From assembly GCA_044892525.1 (NCBI GenBank), contig CM097885.1, positions 19,780,001 through 19,844,000 of the forward strand: a stretch of 64,000 bases of DNA. The letters are read 5' to 3'. This document shows positions 6,124 to 59,211 of this stretch, one piece after another. A program made the translations under genes and the position numbers. The stretch's first letter is position 1; the number at the start of each line of letters is the position of its first letter. The notes below the pieces were generated by a model, which worked only from the letters and a program-made list of their open reading frames with translations, searched no databases and was not told the origin of the DNA. Origin of the DNA: Schmidtea polychroa (Eukaryota).

Positions 6124-6348
6124 TTCTAAAATAATTTAAAATATAATGTTTTATTTATACTAATACCGTATGATTCTGATTGGTTGATAGACTATAAATG
6201 TAAAAGAAAGGTTTTGATTTGATACACCAGGAAAACTATATTCATATTGCTAATTATTATAACAAGTGTGTGCTAACACAATACTATAAATTTTATAATA
6301 TTCGACTATGTTTTTAGTTAACCATGATTTGTGATAGAAATTTGAAAT

Positions 6349-6459
<111 letters not shown>

Positions 6460-6540
6460 TTTGTTAATGATGAGATTCGTGTGGATCCTGATGACAGAAC
6501 TTTTGAAAGAATTTTGTTAGAAATTTTATATTTTTATTGT

Positions 6541-6589
<49 letters not shown>

Positions 6590-6689
6590 CCTTGTGAGTT
6601 GTTGAGCGTGAGCAGTACCCTTTTGAGCATTACCCATAGGGGGACAGAATATTTTGTCGGATAAACTCGGAGTATATAGATTAATAGTC

Positions 6690-6722
<33 letters not shown>

Positions 6723-6859
6723 TTCGCTTCAAAATAAGCTATGGATCGATGAAATAAGTTGATGGGGACGATAACTTTTGGCAGGCCAAATAGTAGGTCA
6801 CCGCGAGCACAAAGACATTAGAAATAATAATATTTTTAAAAATAATAATAATTATATAT

Positions 6860-7094
6860 CATTGATGAGTCATATGTATTTGTTCTCAAGTCGACCTTGA
6901 ATGCTTGATGAGTCATATGTCTTTGTTCTCAAGTCGACCTTGAATGCTTGATGAGTCATCGGATGAGTCATATGTCTTTGTTCTCAAGTTGAAAAAAAAA
7001 ATTTTTTTAATTTTTTCCGGCGGGGGGGGAGGTGTTGTAAAAAATGTCTTTGTGCTGGCGGTGACCTGTTTTCGCGGTGACCAATCCATCTACT
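6860..7094. repeat. Polinton terminal region with repeated GATGAGTCAT units and two GCGGTGACC repeats
   Basis: ~43-bp tandem unit at 6864-6990; TTTTTTCCGG-G-run; GCGGTGACC twice before the terminal TCTACT. Confidence 0.75.
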
Positions 7095-9579: not shown

Positions 9580-11992
9580 ATAATCATTATATCATATTTT
9601 GTGACAATTATTCATTTTTAGTGAACTTGTTGTGCATATCAAAGCTTCAATTATAGCATTTGTCACGACTGAGATAATGAGGCCATCCCCATGGAAGGCC
9701 GAACCGGTCAATTTGACCGGTATCTTGAAACACACAAGAAAGTCACACATAATCATCTTATATACTAGAAAATATAAAACCAAATATAATTTACACACAA
9801 CCGAAGCATTTAACAGTCATTTGGGAATGTTTTCCACAGTAAACTTTACTACATACATGGCATATAGCTCCGGATTTGTTATCACAATGAGGAGCAGAAC
9901 AAGTTTTTCGCTTCTTTAATTTTGGTTGTTCAGAACAGAGTTCAACAGAGATGGGACTTGCTGTTCGACGGCTTTTGAACTCCTCACAAAGAGATGTAGC
10001 TAATTCAAAAATAAAATCCCTTCTTTTTATAGTTGATCCCGTAGCATCTTTGAAAATAACATGAGCGTTGAGAGCTGCTTTATCAAGCAAATCATAGAAA
10101 GTAGCGACTGGCCATCTTGCTGTTGCGGCTTTACTGCTGTATAAACGCAACATGCTATCCATGGTATCTACAGCTGTCTTATCTTTGTTATAAAAGTGTA
10201 TCATTTCAGGCTTTCTCTTTTCGTCAGATCTCACACTAGCAGTAGAATGGAATGTTGACATGACAATGTCTTTCTTGTCCGATTTGCCTTGATAGGAAAC
10301 AGTGACAGTGTTTTGACACGATAAATGAGTCGATTCAAAAAGAGGCTTTTTCTCCAAGTGAGCTGATGATAAAAAGCGTGAATTTAATCTTACAGTACCA
10401 ACCAATGTTGTTCGATTTACAAGGAGATGTTCAGCTAGTGAGAGACTTGTAAAGAAATTGTCAGTGCAGACATTGTATCCTTTATTGAAAAATGGCTCCA
10501 TTAGTTTCCTTACTACAAAATCACCCAGTCGTAATCCACAGCGTTCGTTTCTATCGTGAGCCCCTAAATATGGCATTTGATTGATTACAAATTTGGTTTT
10601 GACATCACTGAGAATCCAGTATTTGATACCGAATTTATCAGGCTTATTTGGCATAAATTGGATGAAGCAACACCTATTTTTAGCGGCAAAAGTTGCTCGT
10701 CGACAGTAAGGAAGGGATTAGGAGTATAAACTTGAAGACAGTTTGAAACAAACAAGTCAAATATTTCACGAAAATGGGCATATTTATCTTGTTCTACTCT
10801 TTGACGTCGAGAACATTGTTCATCAAAACGAAGAAAGCGCAGTATCTCACGGAAACGGTTCCGAGACATGACTTCTCTGAAGTAAGGAGATCCAAATTGA
10901 GATGACCAGATTGAATTGATAGAATGTCGGCGAAAGCCTAACACACCACGGAGATACAGCAATCCAAGAAAAGCATCTAATTCTTGTAGACTGATACACC
11001 AGTCTGACGAAGCTTCTTTTCCTTTCATAATTGTGTATTTTTGAATTAACTTCAGCATTCCCTCAGAGACTATCAAGCGCCAAGCGCTCAGGAGTGAGTC
11101 AATTTTGCGCTTTGCAAAAGCTTTCACACCAGGTGTTCCACTAAAAATATTGTGCGCAGGGAATCTACCAACACTAATAGCGTGATTGTTTTCTACTCGA
11201 TTCCAAAGAGTGCCATCCCTGCTAGATAAAAGCTGATTTTCTAATGAAGAAATTGAGCTATTGACTGACTCATTGTCACTTTCTAACGAACTTCGATTAT
11301 CATCAGAGTTCCATTCATGTAACTCTTCGTCAGAATCATTTCTTTCGGGCTCATCATCACTTCCCATAGGCTGATCTTCATCTTCGGAGAGAGCAGCGTC
11401 AATATTCCATAGCTTCTGTAAAGCACGTTGAGCAGCAATTCTTTTAGTTGGCATATTTGATTCTAAAATAATGATAAAAACTCCGTCAGTAAAATAAGAA
11501 ACGTCAAATTTATTATTGGATTCTAATGAAAACACGGTTTTATAATGTTTGTTATCCCAAGAAGTTCAAAGATTTTCTATAACAATTATTAGATATTGTC
11601 TTATGACATTTCGTTAAGTTTTTCGTTTGATTCTTTTAATTTACCAAATTTCAAAACTTAGAACTCTTAATGCTTGCTTAATTACACTTTTAATAAGCAC
11701 TATCTTTGAATAAAAGCAAGAGAATATTTATAAACAAGAAATGTTTAAAATAGTGTAGCTTTGTGTCAGCTAAACAAATATTTTTATTTCATTGTTGTAA
11801 GTAGTTTAATAAATTAACTACTGTTAGAATAAAAATAGTTAAATTTTGAAAGCGTGTTAGTAGCACAAAGAAAGTATTGCTAGATGAGTTGCATCATAGA
11901 AATCTCAGCATGAAAATAAGGAGCATATGTGCACCGGTCAAATTGACCGGTTTGGCCTTCCAAGGTATAAAATATTTCCGGCCGTCCTAGTG
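9580..11992 (-). mobile_element. piggyBac DNA transposon 1, left end missing
   Basis: Ends CCTAGTG-TTAA (11993-11996). Internal palindromic repeat ACCGGTCAA(A/T)TTGACCGGT at ~9703 and ~11933. No matching TTAA-CACTAG found on the left. Confidence 0.85.
9791..11454 (-). pseudogene. piggyBac transposase (PGBD4-like), frameshift near 10680
   Basis: MSRNRF, TVDEQL, MPNKPDKFGIK, TDNFFTS, AVDTMD and C-terminal Cys-rich domain, split over two frames. Confidence 0.92.
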
Positions 11993-20096: not shown

Positions 20097-22136
20097 ATGA
20101 ACCTTTCTGATTTTCAGTTCACCAGCTCATTGGAAGCTCCTGTTTATTTGTTAACTGCTTTAAACGAATTGTATGGAATATTTCAAAATGTTTCTACCAC
20201 TTATAGTGAAGACGGACACTTAGTTGAAAATGGTATAAAACTGAATTGTAGTCGAAAGTCTCCAGCCACAGAATATGCTGAATATGCCATTGGTACATAT
20301 TATGTTATTTGTATTATTATATTCTCCATGATGGTCAAACGAGTATCTTATAGACGGAATCAGTGTAACGGCAAGCCAGGACTTGTATTGCCAATGAACA
20401 TGTTAAACAGTCACAATTACATCGTCGAATATACGTTGATTTTTCTCTCTCTATCCGAAGCAATTTACGCTTACATTTTCGGATCGAAGGTAGAAGTTGG
20501 TCAAATAATTCCAATTGGTAATTTTTTTATTAAACTATTTATTGTTATCGTAATTTCAATTCTTTCTTATCCAATTTTTGCCGCCATTACAAGTCGCCAT
20601 TTGTTCGGCTATATTACTGTTATGCTGGCGTCAGTTGCTACTTTTTTTGTCGGGGTTTCAGCAACATATACCTATTGTTTCTGTTTAGTTGGCGTGAAAA
20701 TCGTTCCGTTTTTATTTGCAGCCGTCCTCTACAGTTCGATAGAAATATCTATTGTTGGGATGTTTGTTTGGAAAACTTTTTGTCACATACGAGAAAACGG
20801 ATTTAGAAATCGGGAATTAAACTGCAAATTGTCACCAGATAAGGAAAATTCGAAAATTTATGTTAGAAAATTGTTGAATGAAAATTTAGACTTGAAGTCA
20901 TTGAAAACAGAAAATCCGACAGAAGAAAAAGAAGAAGAATTGAAATTTATTGTCAGCCATTTTAAATGCGACGAATTGAAAAGTAAAATGAAAGAAAAGA
21001 TTTATAGACCGATTCCTGGATTCCGGTTACCACCACGATTGATGATTGGGATGTTTGTGGGGTTGTATTTTGCCTATAGGATTTTCATAGATAATATTTT
21101 GGGGCTGACTCCAATCGCGTGGAAGCTGCTAGATGTAATTAATAAAAAATATTTAACTACACAAACAAATATTAGTCGATCTTTTTACTTAATTTGGAGC
21201 AACTATTCTCTTTATTCAAAGTTGGAAATGCAAAATTCCTTTCGATATCTAACTTTCTCTTACACTCATCTTTTGATTTCCTGTCTTCTTGCAGCAATTT
21301 TTATCGCATTTATTAATTCCATTATTCAGTCCTTATTACTGTTGAGAAATTACCGACTTCATTTTCATCGAATAACGAGAAAGGGGTTCTCAACTTTCAT
21401 GGACATCAAACAAGCCCCTCCTATCTACGATTTGGTACTCGGATATGTTCGATTCAGTGGTTATCAGGCAGCGTATACTTTGTGGGGAATTTTAGTCGTG
21501 ACGTTTTTTATGTTTATAGTTCTTTTTATTGTAATTGGTATAGTTCTGTGGCCTTTATTTTATATTGAAAATTCTTGGCCTAGGACACTTCTGATTAACT
21601 ATGGTCCGGTATTAGTCGTGACGATTATTTTTAATATTATTCAAACAACGATTGTGAAATATTTATTTATCATGGAGAAAGGAACGATTATGGAAGTGAA
21701 CAATCGAAGATCATTTATAATTTATACGCATTGTGCATTTTTTCTAAATGCTATGATGGGAATTTTCAATTCTGTCAAACGTGTCATCATCTGGGTATTT
21801 TCTGGAGTGTTTTGCTTTTCTAGAATAGATTTTAGTTCTTTGCCTGAATACTTGCACGGATTCGACAGTGGATACATGGCATATGTAGGATTTGTTTACA
21901 CAGAACAATATCATTTTAATCCTATTTTACTATGCTTTACGGATCTTCTTGTGGAAACGAAAAAAGAAAAATATATTAATACAAATGAAGATCAACTCGA
22001 CTTATTAAATAATGACAAAGGACGCACGAGGTTTAGAAATTTGTGGCGTGTCGCTGTTACTTTAATAAACAACCACCAGTTGTTATTAGAGAGGAAAAAT
22101 ATTTTGAAAAATAATGTTGTTTGTGATGGAGAATGA
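20097..22136 (+). CDS. STRA6-like / RBP-receptor family multi-pass membrane protein
   Basis: 679-aa uninterrupted ORF with many hydrophobic segments. RID..LP.....D.GY..Y.G...E..H.NP.L..F and R.RN.W..A.TL.NN..L...RK motifs of the STRA6 family. Confidence 0.88.
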   Translation: MNLSDFQFTSSLEAPVYLLTALNELYGIFQNVSTTYSEDGHLVENGIKLNCSRKSPATEYAEYAIGTYYVICIIIFSMMVKRVSYRRNQCNGKPGLVLPMNMLNSHNYIVEYTLIFLSLSEAIYAYIFGSKVEVGQIIPIGNFFIKLFIVIVISILSYPIFAAITSRHLFGYITVMLASVATFFVGVSATYTYCFCLVGVKIVPFLFAAVLYSSIEISIVGMFVWKTFCHIRENGFRNRELNCKLSPDKENSKIYVRKLLNENLDLKSLKTENPTEEKEEELKFIVSHFKCDELKSKMKEKIYRPIPGFRLPPRLMIGMFVGLYFAYRIFIDNILGLTPIAWKLLDVINKKYLTTQTNISRSFYLIWSNYSLYSKLEMQNSFRYLTFSYTHLLISCLLAAIFIAFINSIIQSLLLLRNYRLHFHRITRKGFSTFMDIKQAPPIYDLVLGYVRFSGYQAAYTLWGILVVTFFMFIVLFIVIGIVLWPLFYIENSWPRTLLINYGPVLVVTIIFNIIQTTIVKYLFIMEKGTIMEVNNRRSFIIYTHCAFFLNAMMGIFNSVKRVIIWVFSGVFCFSRIDFSSLPEYLHGFDSGYMAYVGFVYTEQYHFNPILLCFTDLLVETKKEKYINTNEDQLDLLNNDKGRTRFRNLWRVAVTLINNHQLLLERKNILKNNVVCDGE

Positions 22137-23870: not shown

Positions 23871-24109
23871 CACTCATACCTCGCTATACGGCTGCTCTTT
23901 ATACGGCTTTTCGCTATAACGGCCTACTTTAATTACGGCACTTTTTCGATTTACGGCCTAAAATGTTTCGTTATACGGCCAAAAAAAGTGTGGAATTGTA
24001 TATGGAATTGTATCAAAATACTTGATTCGTTATGAGTAGTATGATGTGAGCTCCCCAGATCATGAGCTCCCCGCATCACATATACCCCCTCCCCCCCCGG
24101 AAAAAAAAA

Positions 24110-25210
24110 TTTTTAGAACGATGCCACATATTTTTAGAACTATTACGTAACCAATGCCTAATATTTTTAGAACTATTACGTAATTTTTTAAAATTAAGTG
24201 ATCTGGCGGGCTCACACTTTTTTTCATCCCAAAAATTAATGTTCCCATTATCCGAATTTATTGGACGATACCTCATCTTAAAGCTCAGTCCAAGACCTTT
24301 CGAATGAGCCATAGAAGGTATCATCATTATTATTAACAAAGAGAATGACTCACCCAACGATGTCTAATATTTTTAGAACGATGCCTAATATTTTTCGAAC
24401 TATTGCGTAATCGATGCCTAATATTTTTAGAACGATGTCTAATATTTTTAGAATGGTGCCTCTTATTTTTAGAACTATTACGTAACCGACGCCTAATATT
24501 TTTAGAACTATTACGTAATTTTTTTAAATTAAGTGATCTGGCGGGCTCACACTTTTTTTCATCCCAAAAATTAATGTTCTCGTCAACAAATTTTATTAAC
24601 CGATACCTCATCTTAAAGCTCAGTCCAAGACCTTTCGAATGAGCTATAGGTATCTTATATATCTTTAATAGTTTTAATGTTATTAACATTTGATGACCAC
24701 CATCTTTTCAAAGTTAAATTATTATTATTTTCCAAAATATTATTAAGTGATCTGGCGGGCTCACACTTTTTTTCATCCCAAAAATTAATGTTCCCATTAT
24801 CCGAATTTATTGGACGATACCTCAACTTAAAGCTCAGTCCAAGACCTTTCGAATGATCCATAGAAGGTATCATCATCATTATTATTAACAAAGAGAATGA
24901 CTCACCCAATGACTCACCCAACGATGTCTAATATTTTTAGAACGATGCCTAATATTTTTAGAACGATGCCTAATATTTTAGAACGATGCCTAATATTTTT
25001 AGAACGATGCCTAATATTTTTAGAACTATTACGTAACCAATGTCACATATTTTTAGAACGATTATGTCATATTTTTAGAACGATGCCACATATTTTTAGA
25101 ATGATTACGTCATAATTTTAGAACGATGCCTAATATTTTTAGAATGATTACGTCATAATTTTAGAACGATGCCTAATATTTTTAGAATGGTGCCTCTTAA
25201 TTTTAGAACT
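24110..25210. repeat. Terminal arrays: ~21-bp TTTTAGAACGATGCCTAATATT units and three larger units with AAGTGATCTGGCGGGCTCACAC; mirrored at ~37655-38845
   Basis: Direct reading; accounts for the repetitive HRSKNIR ORFs. Confidence 0.9.
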
Positions 25211-25909
25211 AATAATTTTTGTTTTAATTATCGATTACATAATAATTTAATTTGTTTAAATCGTTGATTATTATTATTATTATTATAATTATAATTATTA
25301 TTATTATATACTCCTAGTCTATCCGACAAAATATTCTGTCCCCCTATGGGTACTGCACACAAGGGTACTACTCACACTCAACAAGTCACAAGGGTACTGT
25401 TCACAAAAGACAAAACTTTCTAAATTCTAAATATTATTCTTTAAATATACACTAAAATTTATTAACACATTCACATTCATCATCTCCACAGTTCATAACA
25501 TTTTCAACAACATGATCTATACAATCCCTATATACACACGGTTCAGTATCCGTAAATTCCTCCATAGGTTCATCAATTTCTTGAATGCTTTCCTCATCAT
25601 CTTGAGTGTTTTCTTCATCTGCTTCATCAAGGTCATTTATTTTTCAAAATATTATTATTTCCAAGGTCATTTATTTTTTCAAGGTCATTTATTTTTTCAA
25701 GGTCATTCCCAAGGTCATTTATTTTTCAAATTCATTTATTTTTTCAAGGTCGCGTGACTCATAAAGGTCATTTTTTTTCAAGGTCATTTTTTAATTTAAT
25801 TTTTTGTTTTAATTAAGTGATCATTAAATTTTTCAAGGTCATTTATTTTTTCAAAATATTATTTTTTCAAGGTCATTTATTTTTCAAGGTCATTTATTAT
25901 TATTATTAA

Positions 25910-25956
<47 letters not shown>

Positions 25957-26470
25957 CTCTTAGTCTATTCGACAAGATATTTTGTCCCCCTAAGGGTATT
26001 GCTCACAAGGGCACTACTCACATGGGTAATTGTCACAAGGGTACTACTCACATTCAACATGTCGTAAATTATTTTCAAATACAAGTTCAAAGTATTATTA
26101 TTTATTTTAACACGCACGGGAGTTATTATTATTATTATCATATATAGTCAGAGTTTATCCGACAAGATATTCTGCCCCCCTATGTGTACTGCTTACATAG
26201 GTAATGGTTACAAGGGTACTTCTCACATTCAACATGTCTCAAAGGGTATAATATAATTATTATTAAATTCTGACCAACTTAAATCAATGAAGGGGTAGAA
26301 CAAAAATATATTAAGTTGCGGTATTTTAAATTTAAAAATATTTTAAAAACTTATTTTGACACTAAAGTTTACTTAATTAACAAAGACATAATTATTGCAC
26401 ATGCTTTGCATAAATATTATTATTTTTTAAATTTTCAATATTTTCTTTTAAAGTATTAACACGCGCGGGA

Positions 26471-26509
<39 letters not shown>

Positions 26510-26956
26510 GTTAATGAAAAAATCTAAAATATGGTTTACACACACAACCCCTCAACCATTATTATTACTATCAATATTAAAAACCTAAAATATTTTCTAC
26601 ACACACACACATGCACAACTCATTAACCATTATTATTATCATTATTAGTGAAAACCTAAAATAAATTTTTACACACACACACAACCCATTAACCATTATT
26701 ATTATTATTATCAATATTAAAAACCTAAAATATTTTTACACACACACATACAACTCATTAAACTTATTATTATTATTATTATTATTGCAAATATTAGTCA
26801 AAAACCTAAAATATTATTTACACTCACACAACCCATTAACCTATATTATTATTGCAAATATTAGTCAAAAACATAAAAACACTCATAAACCATTATTATT
26901 ATTATCAATATTAAAAACCTAAAATATTTTTTACACACATATACAACCCATTAAAC

Positions 26957-26998
<42 letters not shown>

Positions 26999-29393
26999 AT
27001 TATTATTATTATTAGTGAAAAAACCTTAAATAATTTTTACACACTAAGTTATGGGGTAGAGTATTATTATGTTTGCAGTATTCTGTGTTTGCCTTCACAG
27101 GAAGTTGTCAATAAGGAGCGATAATTTTACACACACATTCTATATACACATACATTGTTTAACATGGGTGTATATACTCCTAGTCTATCCGACAAAATAT
27201 TCTGTCCCCCTATGGGTATTGCTCACAAAGGTACTGGTCACACTCAACATGTCGCAAGGGTATATTAATTAGGGTTAGTAAATAAAACTTATCACACACA
27301 CTATTTAAACGATAAAAATCAAGACAAGAGAGGACAAGGCAAAGTGTATGCAGTTATTATTGCCAGGCCTAATGAGCAGTGACCAAATATCTGTGCCTGA
27401 AAGACACGGTGGATATTTGTTCGCGTCCACAAGGGTCGTCTGTGCCTCCCCCAAGTGGGGTCAGAAGAACCTGGGCATTATAGTTTTCCGTACGGAACAT
27501 TACGCCTAGCATGGGTAGTCAACTACCAGCACATTCGAAACGTATAATTTCAAAATACATGCGTCATTGGCACTATAACCAAATTAATTATTGTTTTCAC
27601 TAACACAAATATATATTTACAGAGGCCTCCCACTAGTTGGATTACAACCGCCCACCACGACGATCAGCTTGTAAATGTATATTAATTAAGGGATAAAGAG
27701 GACCTACCCAACCCTATTATATTTAATTTACAAATTTTTCTCGCTCTTCTGCTGGTATTCTATCTCATCTCTATATATCATCTCTATCGGGCCATTTGGA
27801 ATACATCTTGCAAATTGGACGTATTTCTTAGTTTCTGATGCGGCGTCCACTATCATTGCTAAAATTTATATTGATTTAAAAGCAATTAACTTACATTATC
27901 TAGCATTTTATCGTCACAAATTAAATTCTGTCTGACTATTAGGCAACTGTTATTTGTGGTATACTTTTTCAATGTCATTTCCCACCATAAAACACAGATA
28001 CCTAAATATAATATATATATTTTAAAGAATTAATTCATGTCTTACATTAATAATAATATTCTTCAGGTAGTACTTTACTTAATTGATAAAACATCGGTTT
28101 TTCCCATTTTTCTTGACAATCGTTGAAAGTTTACATAATTTAAGTCTGATAATTCATGTTGAAGGACAACCACAATCAGCTAATTCATTTAAGAAATCCG
28201 GAACTATAACTCCTTTAGTGTTTCACCATTTTGTCTGATTCATCTTCTTCATAATCCTATAATTCAGGTTTAAATAAGAATCTCTAAATCTCTATAACAC
28301 ATAAATCCTTTGGTGTTTCACCATTGGTACGGTTCATCTTCTTCATAATCCAATAATTCATTTTCTGTTGGTGGTCTGAGCGGTCGATTTAATTAGAAAT
28401 AGATATATTAAAGATATTTAAGATACCATTCAGTAAATGAATTCTTAGTTAATATAGTATTTTTGAGTATTTTTTAGTTAATTTTTTAAATAACAGTATT
28501 TTGATATATCAATAAAGACCATATACTGCGAGTTTATCCGACAGGATATTCTGTCCCCCTATGGGTACTGCTAGCAAAGGTACTACTCACACTCAACATG
28601 TCGCAAGGGTATATTAATTAAGGTTAGCAAATAAAACCTATCACACATACTTTAATATTTAAACGATAAAAATCAAGACAAGAGAGGACAAGGTAAAGTT
28701 TATGCATTTAGTATTGTCATACCTGATGAGCAGTGACCAAATATCTGTGCATGTTAATAATTAATTATTATTTAAAGGTTTAAAAATACTGATAAATAAA
28801 ATTCTTCAATTTTACTTTGTGTAACATATGACTTTTATCATTTTCTTATCATTGTTTTATTTTGTTTAAATCTTTTAAAGCAAAAATAAAACATTTTTGT
28901 TTTGATTTAATTATTCTAAAAGTTCTCAAATTCAAAATTTATCTAATAATTAATTGTAATTGACATCTTTACACTATTCTAGAATTTTAGATTACTAAAG
29001 AAAGTATAATTATAATTATAACTTTCTTTCTTTACTAGAAGAAATTTATGATCTATCAGAGTATAAGAAAGTAAATCATTTGTTATTTAAATTTCGGTTT
29101 TATTTATAGATTTCAGGTTGAAAATAAATTAATGCAATGCAGTATCGATATCATAGAAAATTATTTTGAATATAATTTCCAGGTGAAATGTATTTAATTT
29201 TTAAATGTAAATAATTAAATATTTATTGTAAATAATTAAATAATTAATAATTAATTAAACCGGTCCTTAAATATATTTTAATCTACATAATTTCTCAAAT
29301 ATATTCCTCATTTCTTCAATAAAGCACAAATGACTTTAAAAAATTATAAAACTCTTGTTGCTTCGTATACCATGTAAAAAGTGTGATAATTTA

Positions 29394-29457
<64 letters not shown>

Positions 29458-29461
29458 TTAA

Positions 29462-29493
<32 letters not shown>

Positions 29494-29496
29494 TTA

Positions 29497-29587
<91 letters not shown>

Positions 29588-29697
29588 ATCATTTTTAAAC
29601 ATTTTATAATTAAACATTTTTTAAAATTAATACCAGAAATTTATATAAGAATATTTAAGATCATAAAAAAAAAAAAAACAACACGTATTAACAAAAT

Positions 29698-30030
29698 TTA
29701 TTTTCTAAATCCACCCATCGTAGAATAATGGTGGATTCTAAGGGCTTTCGCTATAGCACATTCAATGTATCGGTTATACCGAAATATACATTCATCACAA
29801 CTTTTATTAGCGAGGACCTCGGTTTCCACATTCGTCGGTACCCTGTTCAGCTTCACGTCCCAAAGAAACCTTTGGTATATATCTGATATCCATATATCAG
29901 TTGCTGAATACACGAGTTCGTGGATCTTCTCAGCAGCATGATTTTGAATAACCGGTTCTAGTTCCGGATAAAAGCTCTTCAGTTTATTGAGTATAATATA
30001 TAAATATTCTTCAGGGATGTTTGAATACAT
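29698..30030 (-). CDS. Polinton accessory protein, left-arm copy
   Basis: 110 aa; homologous to the spliced gene at 3516-3922. Confidence 0.75.
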   Translation of the reverse strand: MYSNIPEEYLYIILNKLKSFYPELEPVIQNHAAEKIHELVYSATDIWISDIYQRFLWDVKLNRVPTNVETEVLANKSCDECIFRYNRYIECAIAKALRIHHYSTMGGFRK

Positions 30031-33000
30031 CTAAATAAAAACATTAATTTAAATAAAATAAATAATAAAGTACTTACTTTAAAATAATGAGAATGATATT
30101 AAATAAATTAAAAAACTATTTATACCATTTCCTCAAACACACCATATGTTCAACCTCTCGACTGTCTCTGGTTGATTTCCATAGGGAAACATCTGTTTAT
30201 CTGTTATCTCTGGGGGGGGATTTCTTTGCTCATCCATTGAAAACATCTGTTGCCAACTCTGGTTGCTGCCACTGATTACATATTCGATTATGTAGAATTT
30301 ATTAAGTAATTATTTTATGTGTTATTTTATAAATAGTTTATTTAATGTGATGCATTTGATTTTCAAATAGATATTTATTACTTTGTAAAATTATGTTATA
30401 TAACTATATGAAAATATGTATTCCCAACTTAACCGAACCCTCACTAAATCCAACCGACTCTAATTTCACCACTTGAACCCTTTAATATATATTTCTACAT
30501 AACCGATCCCTCACCAAATAATTCTACCCACTTGAACCCTTTAATATATATTTCTACATAACCGATCCCTCACCAATTAATTCTACCCGCTTGAAATCAA
30601 TTCTTTAAAAACCCTTAGAAAATGTGAAAAATCTTTAAAAATATGAATTTTCATTAGTTGTTATCGCCACATAACATACATTTATGAAATATCTAAATAG
30701 ATATATAATAAGAGCATCCTTGTTCAAAATTTACTAAAATCAATATTTTCTACAAATATTTCACCGCATTTACCATCAAATACCTAACTAGAGATGAAAT
30801 ATATTGATTGATCATAATTCTTCATCGATTCAGCTAATTATATAGCAATTATAACGTGATATATCTTTCAAAATCACAAATTTCAGTATATTTTACAATA
30901 ATTTTTACAAAAATTAAATAATAACTTGATTATTGTAAAAACTCTAATTATTAACCTAACTGTCATTAAAAATAATTTTTATTTAAAAGTAAATTTAAAA
31001 ACAAGTCAATAAAATATAGCAAATTATCAAGAAATTAATTAAATTTGTCTTAGAATTAACACTAAAACGTTAAATTTCAAAATATTCTTTCAATTATTCA
31101 CAAAAAATGTTGGTAAAATCCCGCTAACTCTAAAAATTACCAATGAATTTAATTCCAAATAATAACCAAATATTTGCCTAAATAAAACACATCAGTACCT
31201 TTGCGATCAGTACCCTTACGACCATTACCAATTGTGAAAAGTACCCATAGAGGGAGAAAATATCTTGTCGGATAAACTCAGAGTATATATAATAAAACGA
31301 ATTAACAATAACTCCATCAAATTGAATCAGTCAAATTATCACAAATTTTAATAAAAAATCTTATTCTAAAGTGGTAAGCAGCCATAGGTGGTAAGAATAT
31401 TTTATTTTTGGGTCTGTTATCCCTCTATTATCATTGTTTACTTGGTGTTTTCATATATTTATGTAAAGTTAATGCTGGGTATATGTTCTGACACACTTTG
31501 TTTCCTTCTTAACTTTGAGAGATCATTTTGATTAAAAAGAGTAATGTATCTTAAATTATCTTTTATAATATCTGTTTTTGAAATATTTAATGTAAAATAG
31601 TAAATCTCATAATTACTAATTCAATATTAAAGCAGTTAATCAAAATTTAAAATATAAAGTTAACATAATTGCTTAGTCAATGCCATTTGTTATGTATGTT
31701 TGTCATTTTTGGATTAAATACTTTATCAAAATAAATGTTTATCACATTATTATTATTCGTTAGTCACTCATATATTAGAAATAATTTATAAATTCTCATC
31801 ACTTATAGCCCCCCATTTTCCACTAATCCTCCAACAACTATTTCTTTGAAAATTTTATTAACTATTTTTTATTAAAGTGATCATTTTTATAAATTTTTAT
31901 GAATTTCATGAAATAATTTTAAATAAATGCAATTAATATATTTCCATCTTATCTATGCCACTTCTCGGTATATTTACATTTATTTTCCATTAATGAATAA
32001 TTCAAACACTTATTTTCAATTATTTTTTTTTTTTTGAATTTCATTATTAATGATGATTCTTACCACCTGAGAATAATATTGTTAATTTTATCTCTGTGTT
32101 ACCTTTCGATTTTACGATGCTTACCACTTTAGAATAAGATTTTTTATTAAAATTTGTGATAATTTGACTGATTCAATTTGATGGAGTTATTGTTAATTCG
32201 TTTTATTATATATACTCTGAGTTTATCCGACAAGATATTTTCTCCCTCTATGGGTACTTTTCACAATTGGTAATGGTCGTAAGGGTACTGATCGTAAAGG
32301 TACTGATGTGTTTTATTTAGGCAAATATTTGGTTATTATTTGGAATTAAATTCATTGGTAATTTTTAGAGTTAGCGGGATTTTACCAACATTTTTTGTGA
32401 ATAATTGAAAGAATATTTTGAAATTTAACGTTTTAGTGTTAATTCTAAGACAAATTTAATTAATTTCTTGATAATTTGCTATATTTTATTGACTTGTTTT
32501 TAAATTTACTTTTAAATAAAAATTATTTTTAATGACAGTTAGGTTAATAATTAGAGTTTTTACAATAATCAAGTTATTATTATTTAATTTTTGTAAAAAT
32601 TATTGTAAAATATACTGAAATTTGTGATTTTGAAAGATATATCACGTTATAATTGCTATATAATTAGCTGAATCGATGAAGAATTATGATCAATCAATAT
32701 ATTTCATCTCTAGTTAGGTATTTGATGGTAAATGCGGTGAAATATTTGTAGAAAATATTGATTTTAGTAAATTTTGAACAAGGATGCTCTTATTATATAT
32801 CTATTTAGATATTTCATAAATGTATGTTATGTGGCGATAACAACTAATGAAAATTCATATTTTTAAAGATTTTTCACATTTTCTAAGGGTTTTTAAAGAA
32901 TTGATTTCAAGCGGGTAGAATTAATTGGTGAGGGATCGGTTATGTAGAAATATATATTAAAGGGTTCAAGTGGGTAGAATTATTTGGTGAGGGATCGGTT

Positions 33001-33443
33001 ATGTAGAAATATATATTAAAGGGTTCAAGTGGGTGAAATTAGAGTCGGTTGGATTTAGTGAGGGTTCGGTTAAGTTGGGAATACATATTTTCATATAGTT
33101 ATATAACATAATTTTACAAAGTAATAAATATCTATTTGAAAATCAAAATAACACATAAAATAATTACTTAATAAATTCTACATAATCGAATATGTAATCA
33201 GTGGCAGCAACCAGAGTTGGCAACAGATGTTTTCAATGGATGAGCAAAGAAATCCCCCCCCCAGAGATAACAGATAAACAGATGTTTCCCTATGGAAATC
33301 AACCAGAGACAGTCGAGAGGTTGAACATATGGTGTGTTTGAGGAAATGGTATAAATAGTTTTTTAATTTATTTAATATCATTCTCATTATTTTAAAGTAA
33401 GTACTTTATTATTTATTTTATTTAAATTAATGTTTTTATTTAG

Positions 33444-33776
33444 ATGTATTCAAACATCCTTGAAGAATATTTATATATTATACTCAATAAACTGAAGAGC
33501 TTTTATCCGGAACTAGAACCGGTTATTCAAAATCATGCTGCTGAGAAGATCCACGAACTCGTGTATTCAGCAACTGATATATGGATATCAGATATATACC
33601 AAAGGTTTCTTTGGGACGTGAAGCTGAACAGGGTACCGACGAATGTGGAAACCGAGGTCCTCGCTAATAAAAGTTGTGATGAATGTATATTTCGGTATAA
33701 CCGATACATTGAATGTGCTATAGCGAAAGCCCTTAGAATCCACCATTATTCTACGATGGGTGGATTTAGAAAATAA
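33444..33776 (+). CDS. Polinton accessory protein, right-arm copy
   Basis: Differs from the left copy at residue 6 (L versus P). Preceded by TATAAATA (~33350) and a GTAAGT...TTTAG 5'UTR intron (33397-33443). Confidence 0.75.
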   Translation: MYSNILEEYLYIILNKLKSFYPELEPVIQNHAAEKIHELVYSATDIWISDIYQRFLWDVKLNRVPTNVETEVLANKSCDECIFRYNRYIECAIAKALRIHHYSTMGGFRK

Positions 33777-33889
33777 ATTTTGTTAATACGTGTTGTTTTT
33801 TTTTTTTTTTTTATGATCTTAAATATTCTTATATAAATTTCTGGTATTAATTTTAAAAAATGTTTAATTATAAAATGTTTAAAAATGAT

Positions 33890-33999
<110 letters not shown>

Positions 34000-34003
34000 T
34001 TAA

Positions 34004-34073
<70 letters not shown>

Positions 34074-36787
34074 TAAATTATCACACTTTTTACATGGTAT
34101 ACGAAGCAACAAGAGTTTTATAATTTTTTAAAGTCATTTGTGCTTTATTGAAGAAATGAGGAATATATTTGAGAAATTATGTAGATTAAAATATATTTAA
34201 GGACCGGTTTAATTAATTATTAATTATTTAATTATTTACAATAAATATTTAATTATTTACATTTAAAAATTAAATACATTTCACCTGGAAATTATATTCA
34301 AAATAATTTTCTATGATATCGATACTGCATTGCATTAATTTATTTTCAACCTGAAATCTATAAATAAAACCGAAATTTAAATAACAAATGATTTACTTTC
34401 TTATACTCTGATAGATCATAAATTTCTTCTAGTAAAGAAAGAAAGTTATAATTATAATTATACTTTCTTTAGTAATCTAAAATTCTAGAATAGTGTAAAG
34501 ATGTCAATTACAATTAATTATTAGATAAATTTTGAATTTGAGAACTTTTAGAATAATTAAATCAAAACAAAAATGTTTTATTTTTGCTTTAAAAGATTTA
34601 AACAAAATAAAACAATGATAAGAAAATGATAAAAGTCATATGTTACACAAAGTAAAATTGAAGAATTTTATTTATCAGTATTTTTAAACCTTTAAATAAT
34701 AATTAATTATTAACATGCACAGATATTTGGTCACTGCTCATCAGGTATGACAATACTAAATGCATAAACTTTACCTTGTCCTCTCTTGTCTTGATTTTTA
34801 TCGTTTAAATATTAAAGTATGTGTGATAGGTTTTATTTGCTAACCTTAATTAATATACCCTTGCGACATGTTGAGTGTGAGTAGTACCTTTGCTAGCAGT
34901 ACCCATAGGGGGACAGAATATCCTGTCGGATAAACTCGCAGTATATGGTCTTTATTGATATATCAAAATACTGTTATTTAAAAAATTAACTAAAAAATAC
35001 TCAAAAATACTATATTAACTAAGAATTCATTTACTGAATGGTATCTTAAATATCTTTAATATATCTATTTCTAATTAAATCGACCGCTCAGACCACCAAC
35101 AGAAAATGAATTATTGGATTATGAAGAAGATGAACCGTACCAATGGTGAAACACCAAAGGATTTATGTGTTATAGAGATTTAGAGATTCTTATTTAAACC
35201 TGAATTATAGGATTATGAAGAAGATGAATCAGACAAAATGGTGAAACACTAAAGGAGTTATAGTTCCGGATTTCTTAAATGAATTAGCTGATTGTGGTTG
35301 TCCTTCAACATGAATTATCAGACTTAAATTATGTAAACTTTCAACGATTGTCAAGAAAAATGGGAAAAACCGATGTTTTATCAATTAAGTAAAGTACTAC
35401 CTGAAGAATATTATTATTAATGTAAGACATGAATTAATTCTTTAAAATATATATATTATATTTAGGTATCTGTGTTTTATGGTGGGAAATGACATTGAAA
35501 AAGTATACCACAAATAACAGTTGCCTAATAGTCAGACAGAATTTAATTTGTGACGATAAAATGCTAGATAATGTAAGTTAATTGCTTTTAAATCAATATA
35601 AATTTTAGCAATGATAGTGGACGCCGCATCAGAAACTAAGAAATACGTCCAATTTGCAAGATGTATTCCAAATGGCCCGATAGAGATGATATATAGAGAT
35701 GAGATAGAATACCAGCAGAAGAGCGAGAAAAATTTGTAAATTAAATATAATAGGGTTGGGTAGGTCCTCTTTATCCCTTAATTAATATACATTTACAAGC
35801 TGATCGTCGTGGTGGGCGGTTGTAATCCAACTAGTGGGAGGCCTCTGTAAATATATATTTGTGTTAGTGAAAACAATAATTAATTTGGTTATAGTGCCAA
35901 TGACGCATGTATTTTGAAATTATACGTTTCGAATGTGCTGGTAGTTGACTACCCATGCTAGGCGTAATGTTCCGTACGGAAAACTATAATGCCCAGGTTC
36001 TTCTGACCCCACTTGGGGGAGGCACAGACGACCCTTGTGGACGCGAACAAATATCCACCGTGTCTTTCAGGCACAGATATTTGATCACTGCTCATTAGGC
36101 CTGGCAATACTAAATGCATAAACTTTGCCTTGTCCTCTCTTGTCTTGATTTTTTTCGTTTAAATAGTATGTGTGATAGGTTTTATTTACTAACCTTAATT
36201 AATATACCCTTGCGATATGTTGAATGTGAGTAGTACCCTTGTGAGCATTACCCATAGGGGGACAGAATATTTTGTCGGATAGACTAGGAGTATATACACC
36301 CATGTTAAACAAGGTATGTGTATATAGAATGTATGTGTAAAATTATCGCTCCTTATTGACAACTTCATGTAAAGGCAAACACAGAATATTGCAAACATAT
36401 AATAATTCTCTACCCCATAACTTAGTGTGTAAAAATATTTTAGGTTTTCACTAATAGTGATAATAATAATTGTTAATGGGTTGTGTGTGTGTGTAAAAAT
36501 ATTTTAGGTTTTCACTAATATTGATAATAATAATGGTTTATGAGTGTTTTTATGTTTTTGACTAATATTTGCAATAATAATAATGGTTAATGGGTTGTGT
36601 GTGTGTGTGTGTAGAAAATATTTTAGGTTTTCACTAATATTGATAATAATAATTGTTAATGGGTTGGGTGTGTGTAAAAAAAAAAAAATTTTAAGTTTTT
36701 GACTAGTATTTGCAATAATAATAATATTGATAATAATAATTGTTAATTGGTTGAGTGTGTGTTTTTATGTTTTTGACTAATATTTGC

Positions 36788-36853
<66 letters not shown>

Positions 36854-36969
36854 GTTTAATGGGTTGTATATGTGTGTAGAAGATATTTTAGGTTTTCACT
36901 AATATTGATACAAATAATTGTTAATGGGTCGTGTGTGTGTGTGTGTAAACCATATTTTAGATTTTTTTG

Positions 36970-37020
<51 letters not shown>

Positions 37021-37385
37021 TGAAATTGTATTTGAAAATAATTTACGACATGTTGATTGTGAGCAGTACCTTTGTGACCATTACCCTTAGGGGGACAGAA
37101 TATCTTGTCGGATAGACTAGGAGTATATATAATAATAATCATAATAATAATATTAATAATAATAATAATATTGATTAAAACTTTGAAAATAATTCTTTGA
37201 AAATAATACTTTGAACAATATTTGATGTAAAAGTTCCTGAAATAATCATGAAAATGTTGAAAATCGTGAAAATATTGAAAATGTAGAAAATTATGAAAAT
37301 ATTGATAATTATTAAAAAATGCAAATGATGAAAATGTTGAAAATCATGAAATTGATGTAGAAATTAAGTTTTATGAATAATTGCA

Positions 37386-37436
<51 letters not shown>

Positions 37437-40283
37437 TTTGAAAATAACATCTTCCACACGGGCGTTAATATTTTAAAAGAAAATATTGAAAATTAAAAAA
37501 TAATAATATGTAATCAACGATTTAAACAAATTATATTATTTCGTATTCGATAATTAAAACAAAAAATTATATAATCAATCATTTAAACAAATTATATAAT
37601 CAACGATTTAAACAAAATTAAATTATTATATAATCGATAATTAAAACAAAATTATTAGTTCTAAAAATAAGAGGCATCGTTCTAAAAATATGACGTAATC
37701 ATTCTAAAAATAAGAGGCACCATTCTAAAAATATTTGGCATCGTTCTAAAAATATTAGACATCGATTACGTAATAGTTCTAAAAATATTAGGCATCATTC
37801 TAAAATTAAAAGGCATCGTTCTAAAAATATTAGACATCGTTCTAAAATTATGACGTAATCATTCTAAAAATATTAGGCATCATTCTAGAAATATTAGGCA
37901 TCGTTCTAAAAATAAGAGGCATCGTTCTAAAAATATTAGACATCGTTCTAAAAATATTAGGCATCATTCTAAAAATTATTACGTAATCATTCTAAAAATA
38001 TTAGACATCGTTGGGTGAGTCATTGGGTGAGTCATTCTCTTTGTTAATAATAATGATGATGATACCTTCTATGGATCATTCGAAAGGTCTTGGACTGAGC
38101 TTTAAGTTGAGGTATCGTCCAATAAATTCGGATAATGGGAACATTAATTTTTGGGATGAAAAAAAGTGTGAGCCCGCCAGATCACTTAATAATATTTTGG
38201 AAAATAATAATAATTTAACGTTGAAAAGATGGTGGTCATCAATTGTTAATAACATTAAAACTATTAAAGATATATAAGATACCTATAGCTCATTCGAAAG
38301 GTCTTGGACTGAGCTTTAAGATGAGGTATCGGTTAATAAAATTTGTTAACGAGAACATTAATTTTTGGGATGAAAAAAAGTGTGAGCCCGCCAGATCACT
38401 TAATTTAAAAAAATTATGTAATAGTTCTAAAAATATTAGGCTTTGGTTACGTAATAGTTCTAAAAATAAGAGGCACCATTCTAAAAATATTAGACATCGT
38501 TCTAAAAATATTAGACATCGTTCTAAAAATATTAGGCATCGATTACATAATAGTTCGAAAAATATTAGGCATCGTTCTAAAAATATTAGACATCGTTGGG
38601 TGAGTCATTCTCTTTGTTAATAATAATGATGATGATACCTTCTATGGCTCATTCGAAAGGTCTTGCACTGAGCTTTAAGATGAGGTATCGTCCAATAAAT
38701 TCGGATAATGGGAACATTAATTTTTGGGATGAAAAAAAGTGTGAGCCCGCCAGATCACTTAATTTAAAAAAATTACGTAATAGTTCTAAAAATATTAGGC
38801 ATTGGTTACGTAATAGTTCTAAAAATATGTGGCATCGTTCTAAAAAATTTTTTTTTCCGGGGGGTGGGGTATGTGATGCGGGGAGCTCATGATCTGGGGA
38901 GCTCACATCATACTACTGTTATGCGGCGTTTCGGTTTGCGGCCAACTTTCCTGGAACGTATCTAGGCCATAAAGCGAGGTATGAGTGTACCAACAATCAA
39001 GTTCCAGCAACCGGCTAACAACGAGGTACTACCAACTAACTAGCAATTACTAAGTACTTACAATCAGCTAACAACTAGATACCAACAACAGAATGGAGAA
39101 TAATATTAAATATATGTTATTTATCTACTGTTAAGAGTTATGTTGTAAGTATTTGAATAAAAATTGATTTATCTTTAAAATAAAATCTTCTTCATTGAAG
39201 AAAATGATACTCATTGGATAAAAATTTAATAAAAATGCAACTGATTGACTTAACTCAAGGCACTACTTGTAAGATGTTCTGAAAAGTAGATAAAGATTAT
39301 ACATTGAATTAAAATACAAAAAAATAATGTAAAAATAACGAGTAAAAATTTGAAATAATTCGAAACATAGTAAATAAATATCATAAAAATGTAATTAAAG
39401 GATAAAAAAAGAACTTTAAATTCTAGTCAATAATAAGCCAGTAAATATTTATCTTAAATACTGATCATTCAAGTTATTAATTAATTTAAATATGAATCAT
39501 TTAAGATCTTCATTCAAGTAACTTACTTCAAGTAATTACCATTGTTATTTTGGAAAATAATATTTGACGAGCTTCGAAGAGCTAAATTTTGTTTAGCGAG
39601 ATATTTTATTATTTCAACAATTCGTTCTAACACACCGCGCCAATGTCGTTTTTCTCTTTCATATACTTTTTCAAGTACCCTATCTATTGTGCTAAACTTT
39701 TCTAATCGTTTTTTTACATCAAAAAACTTTATAAATGATGTACAACGGGATTTAGCTATTTCATGACTACTCAGAGTTTTTGATAAATTTTGCCAATTTG
39801 AGTAACCATCTGTGGTTAAAGAACTTGTTCCACCTGCAAATAATTTGCAACATGAACAAAAAACACAATTTATGTAACATGAATATATAAGCCATGTTCG
39901 CTATCTTTATTTGCTATCTTTATTTGCTATCTTAGGATAGTAATAGTTATTACTAAAACTACTACCACAATCGTCTTGAGGATATAATTTTTGTTCTATC
40001 GGTATCATCGAACCTTGCTCAATAATAATTTTCCGAAGTTTGTCATTTATAACTTTGGGCCAAGTAGCTGGATCATTTGATTTAAATGAAATCAATACTT
40101 CATTTTCCCTCACTGTTTCACTTACTGTTCCTGAAGTTGTTTGGGGTGATAAATGTAAATTAGATTGACATTCTGTGGTCGACGTGGTAGCGATATTGTT
40201 ATGTCCTTCGTGTTGATGTGGTAAAGTTAAGGAAGGTGAATCAATAACTTTCTGGACTGTGAATGAATGTAATTCTTTCGGTT

Positions 40284-47238: not shown

Positions 47239-49751
47239 ATTTCTCTTAATAGATTCCAAACTTAACCGATCCCTCACCAAATGACCATAATTCTACCACT
47301 TTAAACATTAATATCCAACCGACTATATCCCCTTTAAATTTTTATATATTCTTTCAATCAACATAAAATTCACAAAAAATTATAGAAATCTACTTGAATA
47401 TTTCCTAAAACCAGCTAACATCAACTTTAAGCAATAAACAGTGAATTTAGGTACCCAATTTGACTAAATAATCATACAAATAAAATTATTAAAACTGAAG
47501 ACAACTCCATCAAATTCATAATTAAATTAATTTTAAAATATACAAATCAGTCAAATTATCACAAATCAAGATAAGAACTTTGATAAAAAATTATTTTAGT
47601 GGTAAGAATTATCATTGCAGCGTAAAATGGAAAGATAATTATTCTCTAAACAAGGAAATGGAGATAAAATTAACAATGAAATTATTAATCGCAAGTGGTA
47701 AGAATCTTCATTAAAATTTTGAGGTGTTTTCATTTGAGAATTGAATATTTCAATGATTTATTAAGATAATTTTAAATGATAAATAATAGACTATTAAAAT
47801 AAGTTTTAAAATAATTTTTAAATTAAAAAGACAAAAAAGGATAAATTTTAAATAAATAAGTTTTTAAAATAAGTTTTATTAGTAAATAATGTTTAAATAA
47901 ATACATTTTAAATATCGAAAATGTTAATAAATTGTTTTGAAAATATTTTATTCAAGGCTGAAAATTTGTTTGAAAATTATTATACAATATTTAATTAAAT
48001 AAATATTTGGAATTATGACGTTATATCTTGAACCTTATTTAAAAAATAATTTAGAAGATGTTCTAGCAGCATCTAATAAAGGTGAGGAAATAGAAACAGA
48101 ATTATTCATTGAACTTATTTATGAAAAAATGATAAATTAATAAACTCAAAAGAGTTACAATTTTCATTGAAAATTAATTCTTTACTTATTTAAAATTCTC
48201 ACTGGCCATATAATAGACCTTAAAATACTTTGGCTTTTTTAGCGAGAGTAGGATTCTATGTACAAAAACCTCTATGGTCAAAGACACCCCCTGACGATAG
48301 TGAGAATCCAAAAACCCCTCTACAGTAATGGTTTTTAAACGAGATTTGGATTTAATGTATAAAAAATCTTGGGACCAAAAATACTCCCTGACTATAGTGT
48401 GAATCCCATTCACCAACCAATTGACTCTAATTCTTGTCGAGTAATCTATATTAGGATGACAATTCATTAAACGCTACAAGTTAAAAATGGCGGTATAATG
48501 ATAATTATCACCATCTTCAAGGAGTAAAAAGTACACAGGTATACCATTTTTACCACCAATAACTTTCTATCTATGTATGATATCAAGATAAGGATGATGT
48601 GGCACATAATCACCATCATTATTATTGTCATCATCTATAATAATTATATCCTTGTATGAAAACACATTTATAGCAAGATTTAGAATTATTTTCCTCTCAA
48701 ATTTCGAAATGTTACACAGCTTCATGGAGCAATTAGCCATAGGGTAATAATAAATCTCACTCAAGAAACTAGTATACTTGCTCACTCTATTCCAATGATT
48801 TCTAATCTGGTCATGTTTTAATACATAAGGTACACTAAATATAAATCACATGTTGTCTGTATTCTTAATGTTCACTATGACAGTTTTATGCTTGGTATAT
48901 ATGTATGGCCCAATAATTGATTAATTGGACAAATTTTGTTCAAAATAAACCCAATTTCTTTAATTTTATTGATTCACCACACGCTGCCAAGATATGTAAA
49001 TTTAACAATTTTCTCGTTTAATTTTGCCACTATTTAATAAATAAAACGTCCGAGAAAACCTGTGCAATATTTGAAAAATATTTGTCCCTAATTTCCTCAG
49101 CGAGTCCGGTGGTTTAGATCTACAGATTATAGCCACAGGTCAACTGGTGCCTGGCGCGTGACTAGAGTGGTGATAATGGGGTTCTGAGAGATGCTAGCGG
49201 TCGTGTGAGGTATAGTGTTCAAATCTTTATGAGCTCTCTTTGGGGAGCCTCGCCATCCAAGTGGTGTGACGGAATGATGTCCAACTCCATCATAGCTGCG
49301 CATTGTGAAATCTGGACTACTAACTCTCAATTCGTGTACCATTGGTGGCGGATCACTAGTGGTGGGTTACTGATGGTTAAAGGTTTATTAGTTAGTGCTG
49401 TTACCAGCGTAACCCAGAATACAACATTCTTCTCCCGCTTGGTACCCGTTGAGTAATCAACGTTGGTACTGTACCAAGGGGTTGAGTACTCGCAAGAAGT
49501 GAGCGCATCAAGGCACTATAATTGTCGAGCACTCTATGGGTTCACGGACTACCGTTAGAAGGTGTGTGTCCGATTTCTCAGGTCCCTTATCAAAATTGTT
49601 CTCCCAAACTCTCGCGCAAACTCTCACTTCTCAGTCAATCACAAAATATCTTGGATATTATTTTAATACTACAAAATATTTATTATTTTCATACTACAAC
49701 AATTATACAAATCATACTACAAATATATATAGATCAACATTTCGCAACAGT

Positions 49752-56936: not shown

Positions 56937-59211
56937 ACAGAACGGTAAACATAAATTTAGCGTATTATATAGTTCATTATTAAATTACTAAATTGATAGT
57001 ACTTAGTGATAGCACAGAAATATAATTAAAATGAAAATACATATTTTAACACTTGCTATTTATTTTTTATGATTTTTATTATAGGATATGTCAAAAGAAA
57101 AAAGAATTGTTCACTCAAGAAGAGCCTGTGCTCAAAAAGCAATTTCACTTTTATGGGCGGATAATTCTGAGGACGAAATGGAAAACCTTGATGAGGAAGA
57201 TGTTACCCTGATTGAAAATGACATTGAAATAGGTATCGACGAAACAATAATAGAAGGTATATAAGCTAGCTACAAATTAAAATCAGCATTTATGGTGACC
57301 AAAGTTTTATTTTTATGTTTTTAGACATAGATGTTGATGAGGAATCTAAAGACTTATCTGATGAGTCAGGTACATTATTTCAATTTCCTAATATATTTCA
57401 ATCGAATTCGTATATTTGTTTCTGTTCCCATTTCAGAACGTGATTCAGATGTGTTGCATTCAACGGCTTTAAATATAAAATGGCAAAAGAAACGGAGATT
57501 GTTGGAATTCCCTACACCTACAAAACTAGTAGATTTCGGAAAAGTGAAAGTGGATATTGAACCTGCAACTGCCTACTCTTCATTTGAAATCACAACAAAT
57601 TTTGAAGATCTTGTAACACTCATTATTGAACAAACTAAATTGTATGCTCAACAACAGGGAATTATATTCGATGTAACAAGTGAAGAGATAAAAGCATTTC
57701 TGGGTATATGCATAATTATGGGCTATAACAGATTACCAAATCTCCGTGACTATTGGTCAACTGACAGAGATCTCCATGTAGATGCAATTGCCGATGTGAT
57801 GACAGTGAAAAGATTTGAATTTATCCTAAAGAATTTGCACTTTAGTGATAATGCTCTTCAGCCACATAAAGACAATCCGGAATACGACAGAGCGTACAAA
57901 GTACGTCCACTAATAAATCATTTCAACAAAGCGTTTCAAGCTGCAATGGAAATGGAAAATGAAATGTCAATTGATGAACACATGATTAAGTTCAATGGGA
58001 AAAGTGCAATGAAACAGTACGTCAAAGGAAAACCCATACCCTGGGGATTCAAAATGTGGGTCCGAGTATCATCACACTCTGGATATGTTCATGAACTTGA
58101 CATGTATCAAGGCAAAGTTTATAATGAAGGTCGCCAATTTGGTCTAGGTGGAAGTGTGGTAATGCATTTGGCAAAAAGTCTTCACAACACAAACTGTATC
58201 CTGGCAATGGATAATTTCTTCTCCTCGGTAGAGCTGTTTTTCTATTTACGTGAAAACGGTGTTCAAGCTATTGGTACTATCAGAACATCACGAAAATACT
58301 TTCCAGATGATGTACGTGCTAACAAGCGTATGAAAGAGGTTAGCACTGATGGCAGTATCTCATCAATAAAGTGGATGGACAAACGTCCTGTCACTATTCT
58401 ATCCAATTATGAGACTCCTTTTGAAACCACGACCGTTATGAGAAGACGAAGAGGTACGGCTGGTAAAATGCCTAAAACTGTTCCAAAAATGGTTTCGACG
58501 TATAATTCAATTATGGGAGTTGTTGACATTGCAGATCAACGAAAAGAGGCATATGGAATCGACCGAAGGTAAGCAAAAATTTACAGCCTCTGTGCACATT
58601 ATAACTCTACATACATTGTTTGTTTTGATTTTTTTACTTAAAGGTCAAAAGTGAAGTTTTACTTACGCATTTTCTTTGACCTACTGGATATTGGTGTGTG
58701 TAATTTCTATGTCATTTTCAAGAAACTAAATGAGAGCAACCTAATGAAGGCTCTTGACTTTCGCAGATCTGTGGCGCTATCTCTCACTGGTCGTTACAGT
58801 AGTCGTCAGAGAGCGACATCCGCCAATCCTCCTTCAAAGAAAATTCGACCGAGTAATGCTGCTTGTCCTACACCACAACATTTACCAGTATTCACAGAAG
58901 ACAGAAAGCGATGCACATACTGCAGCACCCGAAGACATGATTGCCGCAGCAACATTAAATGCCGTTCATGTGATGTTCACCTCTGTCTGAATGCTCAACG
59001 TCAGTGTTATTCACTTTATCATATAATTGACTGATTGGATATTTTGCATATTATCGCTTAGTGGTGTATTTATGTACCACCCCAGGTAGTGTCTAAAAAA
59101 TAAAGAATAAATTATTTTTTGAAAATAATACTCACAAATGGACTAAAATCTGTCGATTGATTAATATTTCAAGCGATAAAAATGCCGGCAACGCTTATGA
59201 GCGTCAAAGGG
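56530..59211 (+). mobile_element. piggyBac DNA transposon 2, full length
   Basis: TTAA-CCCTTTGACGTTC ... GAGCGTCAAAGGG-TTAA. Confidence 0.95.
57088..59034 (+). CDS. piggyBac transposase, four exons (57088-57256, 57325-57369, 57437-58568, 58644-59034)
   Basis: Three GT-AG introns keep the frame. IDEHM, MDNFF and VDIADQ catalytic Asp motifs plus a C-terminal Cys-rich domain. Confidence 0.88.

Follow-up and report, generated by a model that had tools for sequence, protein, structure and literature searches.

The question raised by this locus is why a transposable element in which no core gene can be recognised should carry the same small gene twice. The window analysed here, a stretch of 64,000 nucleotides from Schmidtea polychroa (contig CM097885.1 of assembly GCA_044892525.1, positions 19,780,001 to 19,844,000 of the forward strand), contains a palindromic, non-autonomous derivative of a Polinton/Maverick element at 24035-38917. 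Each inner arm of the palindrome has an open reading frame (ORF) starting with ATG and encoding 110 amino acids, which we call gene X; the left-arm copy (29698-30030, minus strand) faces the left end of the element, and the right-arm copy (33444-33776, plus strand) faces the right end. A homologue lies at 3516-3922 (plus strand) in a separate element, Polinton A, one end of which occupies positions 1-7094. As argued below, gene X is probably a passenger in the core-gene-less palindrome, a terminal accessory piece that would have been kept and then doubled by fold-back.

An earlier note on this DNA saw, by eye, a homology between the two arm ORFs and the Polinton A gene, and this homology withstands a shuffle control. 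Removal of a predicted 44-nt GT-AG intron (3571-3614) joins exons 3516-3570 and 3615-3922 into an open product of 120 amino acids; the sequence fits an alternative 83-nt intron (3532-3614) as well, which gives 107 amino acids and an N-terminus nearer the arm-protein length. The arm protein aligns with the 3516-3922 product without gaps (42% identity in ~97 residues; tblastn E 5e-22), and the alignment score of 205 is reached by none of 5000 shuffles (mean 28, standard deviation 5.2, maximum 56; z=34). At the DNA level the two hardly align (best blastn E 0.01). Over 96 codons, the first, second and third positions have identities of 0.61, 0.62 and 0.40, and different codons are used at 23 of the 42 identical residues. 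This is an ancient homology between coding sequences, preserved by selection. In Polinton A the gene comes immediately after a TBP-like gene; with the ATPase/integrase module on one side and the terminus on the other, it sits in the accessory region. The homology is real.

Searches of Pfam, NCBIfam, PHROGs, 1.84 billion protein representatives and the sequences in the PDB yielded no credible relative, in agreement with the earlier description of gene X as an uncharacterised family, and the gene was found in none of 80 related Polinton loci. The literature, as judged by titles and abstract openings, likewise gave no account of the protein; a named homologue could be among the Adintoc groups of PMC8502044 or in Repbase. 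Gene X is a real, lineage-restricted and apparently undescribed Polinton accessory gene.

The element that carries the two arm copies was delimited by sequence, self-blast and protein queries. It is 14,883 bp long, starts with AGTAGT, finishes with ACTACT, and is flanked by a 6-bp target-site duplication GTTATG (24029-24034 and 38918-38923, both on the plus strand). Terminal inverted repeats with the motif 5'-(AGT)2//(ACT)2-3' and a 6-bp duplication are the end features given for Mavericks in PMC8097293, and both are found here. None of 50 Polinton protein queries, taken from Polinton A and five related loci and comprising integrase, ATPase, PZ-like, TBP-like, pPolB-sized and other long ORFs of close relatives, has a match within 24035-38917, and for this reason we consider the element a non-autonomous derivative: the pPolB, integrase, ATPase, protease and capsid proteins that define an autonomous Polinton are not encoded. 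The ends of the palindrome are unlike the Polinton A end at 7094, and their pattern was not found in viral_contigs. No description of palindromic Polinton derivatives was found in the literature, as judged by titles and abstract openings.

The arms of the palindrome differ strongly in their divergence. Self-blast pairs 24035-25208 with 37702-38917 and 26999-31380 with 32118-36467, around a central spacer (loop) of 737 bp at 31381-32117. In two outer blocks the arms differ by substitutions at 1.7% and 1.5% of positions, and at 27068-27400 by 5.7%; the outer arms also carry asymmetric blocks (25300-27000 vs 36467-37500). By contrast, the inner arms around the spacer (27401-31380 and 32118-36067) show no substitution in 1990 and two in 1762 aligned bases (~0.05% over ~3750 nt, the TAA tract excluded), and otherwise differ by a small number of indels, of which one spans 29 nt. 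Each arm contains a repeated 230-bp block, and it is at the inner edge of this block that identity jumps from 94% to ~100%; the arms return cleanly to the diverged state at about 27400/36067. Since the inner arms are near-identical, the two gene X copies come from one recent duplication or homogenisation, and two open copies amount to one observation rather than two. An alternative explanation of such a pattern is an assembly fold-back artefact at a locus that truly has a single gene, which would account for inner arms about 99.9% identical and for an arm-spacer-arm junction bridged by none of the contigs listed. However, it is hard to reconcile with the perfect 6-bp duplication flanking both ends, the 1.5-1.7% divergence and asymmetric blocks of the outer arms, the two substitutions and the 29-nt indel that set the inner arms apart, and the clean return to a diverged arm, and we regard it as scarcely credible.

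The TATA box and intron of the 5' untranslated region that the earlier note reported as retained are present in the right arm and mirrored in the left. The putative promoter and leader of the right copy (33350-33443, plus strand) consist of a predicted TATA box (33350-33357, TATAAATA), the initiator-like word TCATTC (33378-33383) and a predicted 47-nt intron, GTAAGT..TTTAG (33397-33443), that abuts the gene X ATG; the same letters stand in mirrored order at 30031-30124 (minus strand) before the left copy. All these signals are predicted from the sequence only. Both ORFs are indeed open, as claimed, but for the reason given above they are not independent, and the single base that separates them is a non-synonymous difference in codon 6. 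In neutral simulations (n=4000) the gene X ORF was still open in 98% of cases at 0.1% divergence and in 75% at 1.6%; because it survives so often, the openness of both copies says nothing about selection.

The origin of the gene X segment is illuminated by a second gene. The view that gene X is the only clear gene kept in the palindrome is correct for intact, full-length genes, but the left arm also contains the 3' part of another Polinton accessory gene, encoding an acidic protein with a cysteine-rich tail (25452-25643, minus strand, without a start). Its 63 open codons match the acidic accessory ORF of Polinton A (5149-5484, plus strand) at 21 of 27 C-terminal residues, and 160 nt of the DNA are 74% identical (E 4e-25); the right arm has no such piece. 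From the centre outward, the left arm reads gene X, acidic gene, end, in the order and orientation of Polinton A, and the Polinton A genes lying between these two are missing from the palindrome. On these sequence matches, we read the left arm as what decay has left of the terminal accessory region in a second Polinton family. Polinton A itself was, we infer, not the parent, because the gene X proteins are only 42% identical, their DNA is not alignable and the ends are different. Within 25452-25900 (minus strand) the truncated acidic gene is fused, on its 5' side, to repeated TCAAGGTCA words, which we take to be nuclear-receptor-type half-sites, and TGACTCA words, presumably of AP-1 type, cluster in the ends of both the palindrome and Polinton A.

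The proposal that a CxxC...HH pattern in gene X supplies zinc ligands looks doubtful. C78, C81, H100 and H101 are common to the three proteins of the window (the two arm ORFs and the 3516-3922 product), but in both predicted models a single long helix separates the CxxC pair at one end from the HH pair at the other by 19 residues and ~28 Å; the models have a mean predicted local distance difference test (pLDDT) of 64 and 69, were built on a shared alignment of only two distinct sequences, and are of low confidence in the CxxC-HH region. One deep contig of run X3 changes C78 (depth 1032 of 1752), a change not seen in run X5, and the protein has no Pfam zinc-finger match at E<=1. Metal binding within one chain is unlikely from the models. 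One zinc, moreover, is rarely bound by adjacent histidines, which counts against a broader version of the proposal, in which gene X is a zinc-binding regulator of the small-DNA-virus-oncoprotein type (Oncoid, E7-/E1A-like) with its ligands possibly placed across an antiparallel dimer. Such a role would fit the conservation of the four residues despite 42% overall identity, the small CxxC-containing 'Oncoid' accessory proteins that adintoviruses encode (PMC8502044), and the presence of a Bcl-2-like gene nearby (E 0.002, under the family cut-off). Gene X differs from the Oncoids in having neither LxCxE nor a CR1 motif and a single instead of a paired CxxC, so that it does not qualify as one of them; together with the spacing along one predicted helix and the C78 change, this makes the broader version distinctly improbable.

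A different function is suggested, tentatively, by the gene context. Gene X may possibly encode a 13-kDa soluble, all-helical, nuclear, protein-binding transcription regulator serving the parent Polinton, a prediction based on the host-type promoter, the TBP-like neighbour in Polinton A and a weak fold lead, the candidates being the helical bundles of sigma-factor domain 2 and Set2 SRI. More specifically, gene X could be a sigma-2-like helical transcription factor in a TBP-based promoter system of the Polinton, two outward-facing copies of which are kept by a palindromic-satellite subfamily as selected cargo that steers or interferes with the helper; we consider this combination very unlikely.

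In the passenger scenario, a piece of the terminal accessory region of the parent Polinton was likely kept in the derivative. One recent fold-back at the spacer would then have copied the inner 4 kb, including gene X, into both arms, with the template switch resuming at the repeated 230-bp block where arm identity changes. For replication and integration the palindrome would depend, in trans, on the polymerase and integrase of a helper Polinton. Transcription of gene X would be the work of host RNA polymerase II, starting at the gene's own TATA/initiator promoter. Further copies of the element were sought among sequencing runs, at least 20 of which are listed as containing the stretch or parts of it, mostly as small shares, the best holders being from one organism. 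Contigs of four runs were placed on 29000-36500, and summed depth was compared by region. In three deep runs it is 115-903 at the right-arm gene X, 69,000-247,000 at 32012-32262 and 275,000-936,000 at 35777-36278. The gene X cassette thus lies roughly 100- to 1000-fold below the surrounding scaffold, a rough estimate, since depth is not copy number and reads matching both arms are split between them. These depths hint that most relatives of the palindrome scaffold are without the cassette.

Variation among the runs was also used to look for selection. Of 62 difference rows, 40 formed the variant set; the 32 within the gene X ORF were used and the eight upstream were dropped. Fourteen are synonymous, 18 non-synonymous and none creates a stop, giving a ratio of non-synonymous to synonymous variation (pN/pS) of 0.33 and an excess of synonymous rows over the 20% of synonymous sites (p=0.002, with sites classed singly and transition bias unmodelled, which would weaken the p-value). 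Within the ORF, the sole listed indel preserves the frame. Columns common with Polinton A contain few of the non-synonymous rows (3 of 18, p=0.046), one of the three changing C78. At least two gene X sequence types, about 10% apart, occur in the runs. Variant copies of gene X have therefore been under past purifying selection.

Apart from the limits of depth, several observations weigh against passive carriage. Purifying selection acts among variants that the contigs cannot assign to either autonomous or core-less elements; gene X has survived intact, promoter included, where neighbouring genes are gone and the acidic one is cut short, a state that selection for gene X would leave likewise; a parent Polinton with the ends of the palindrome was not seen; and the fold lead is weak, the two models sharing one alignment. 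The main alternative is that a palindromic-satellite subfamily keeps gene X as selected cargo, whose protein boosts its own spread, for example by tuning helper or host transcription or by countering silencing by PIWI-interacting RNAs (piRNAs). Polintons of planarians are silenced by piRNA (PMC8532177), so a counter-silencing gene would pay. Gene X being the only intact gene, with its promoter and intron signals preserved, the pN/pS of 0.33, the scarcity of non-synonymous rows in the shared columns and the two or more sequence types all favour this alternative. It is opposed by the arms being one recent copy, by the low (roughly estimated) depth of the cassette, by the only difference between the arm ORFs being non-synonymous, and by the loss of the first cysteine in one deep contig; overall we hold selected cargo to be unlikely, though the most serious of the competing explanations. 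The earlier suggestion that gene X helps the non-autonomous element finds no direct support; against it stand the near-identical arms, the collinearity with a Polinton end and the low (roughly estimated) cassette depth, and service to the palindrome is less likely than passive carriage.

Among known systems, the palindrome resembles snap-back (hairpin) defective viral genomes, a type of comparison to which the duplicated-end defectives of adenoviruses belong, in its inverted ends, self-complementary body and probable helper dependence. Unlike them, it is integrated DNA with a target duplication, is of near full Polinton length, and has outer arms more diverged than its inner ones. Gene X itself can be compared with the Maverick/Polinton accessory ORFs described by Barreat and Katzourakis (PMC8097293) and the 'Adintoc' proteins of Starrett et al. 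(PMC8502044); these are likewise small ORFs, located in the variable region that separates the core module from the terminal repeat, the Adintocs being unnamed adintovirus proteins designated only by group in the main text. In contrast to those compared, gene X survives in a core-less palindrome, and it has predicted introns, whereas intact vertebrate Mavericks are described with intronless core ORFs.

Other features of the palindrome were noted along the way. A ~90-nt motif has ten sites in it (25305-25396, 25951-26067, 26141-26248, 27167-27262, 28521-28611, 31232-31289, 32209-32266, 34856-34946, 36205-36300 and 37043-37129), one near the Polinton A end (6587-6678), and none elsewhere in the window. 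Some copies include the end word AGTAGT, and most face outward, the spacer-flanking pair facing inward; folding analysis of the copies revealed nothing unusual. The motif is a candidate for a cis-acting replication or packaging signal, or else a small insert. A decayed, tandemly duplicated, acidic coding-like piece at 35080-35330 (mirror at ~28140-28390) lies in the high-depth scaffold; in run X7, which we can only guess to be RNA, just one depth bin is higher. Weak matches to the Rfam family Metazoa_SRP (30.9 bits, gathering threshold 70) at 27570-27668 (minus) and 35799-35897 (plus) are probably due to chance.

Polinton A contains, before its terminus, integrase, PZ-like, packaging ATPase, TBP-like, gene X, accessory and Bcl-2-like genes. 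Its integrase (737-1651, minus) is a degraded copy, since it has an in-frame TAA microsatellite (an Ile run) and a premature stop. The TBP-like gene (3003-3440) matches PF00352 (E 1e-15) and has homologues in 10 of 80 Polinton loci, and the Bcl-2-like ORF (5812-6123, minus) matches PF00452 below its cut-off (E 0.002). A promoter and gene start are tandemly duplicated at 4100-4300 and 4490-4984 (86% identity), the first copy being truncated and both having a CCAAT-type box and GGTATA. Related contigs (L001:178-3325, L005:225-722 and L013:663-1260) carry, by eye, other accessory ORFs resembling a dual-specificity phosphatase, TRAF, RING with an IAP-type tail, and a ubiquitin-conjugating enzyme. 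The fragment 48384-48917 (minus) resembles the long ORFs of pPolB size in L005 and L014 (E 8e-16, 31% identity) and is, on this sequence match, another Polinton remnant. Outside these elements, an intronless ORF of 679 amino acids (20097-22136, plus) encodes a retinol-binding-protein-receptor of STRA6-like type (PF14752, E 1e-59), which indicates an animal host, and two piggyBac-like transposase genes were recognised by eye in pieces (9791-11454, minus; 57331-59034, plus).

As a passenger, gene X is a marker tying the palindrome to a second Polinton family, and together with the truncated acidic gene it suggests that the palindrome descends from a Polinton terminal accessory region recently doubled by fold-back. 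The gene X family appears undescribed and may represent a new small fold, orphan accessory genes being common in Polintons. If core-less copies do keep gene X under selection, it would be a regulator on a Polinton satellite and a handle on how helpers are exploited; and if the sigma-2-like cargo version were true, this would be a satellite of a eukaryotic virus with its own helper-hijacking regulator.
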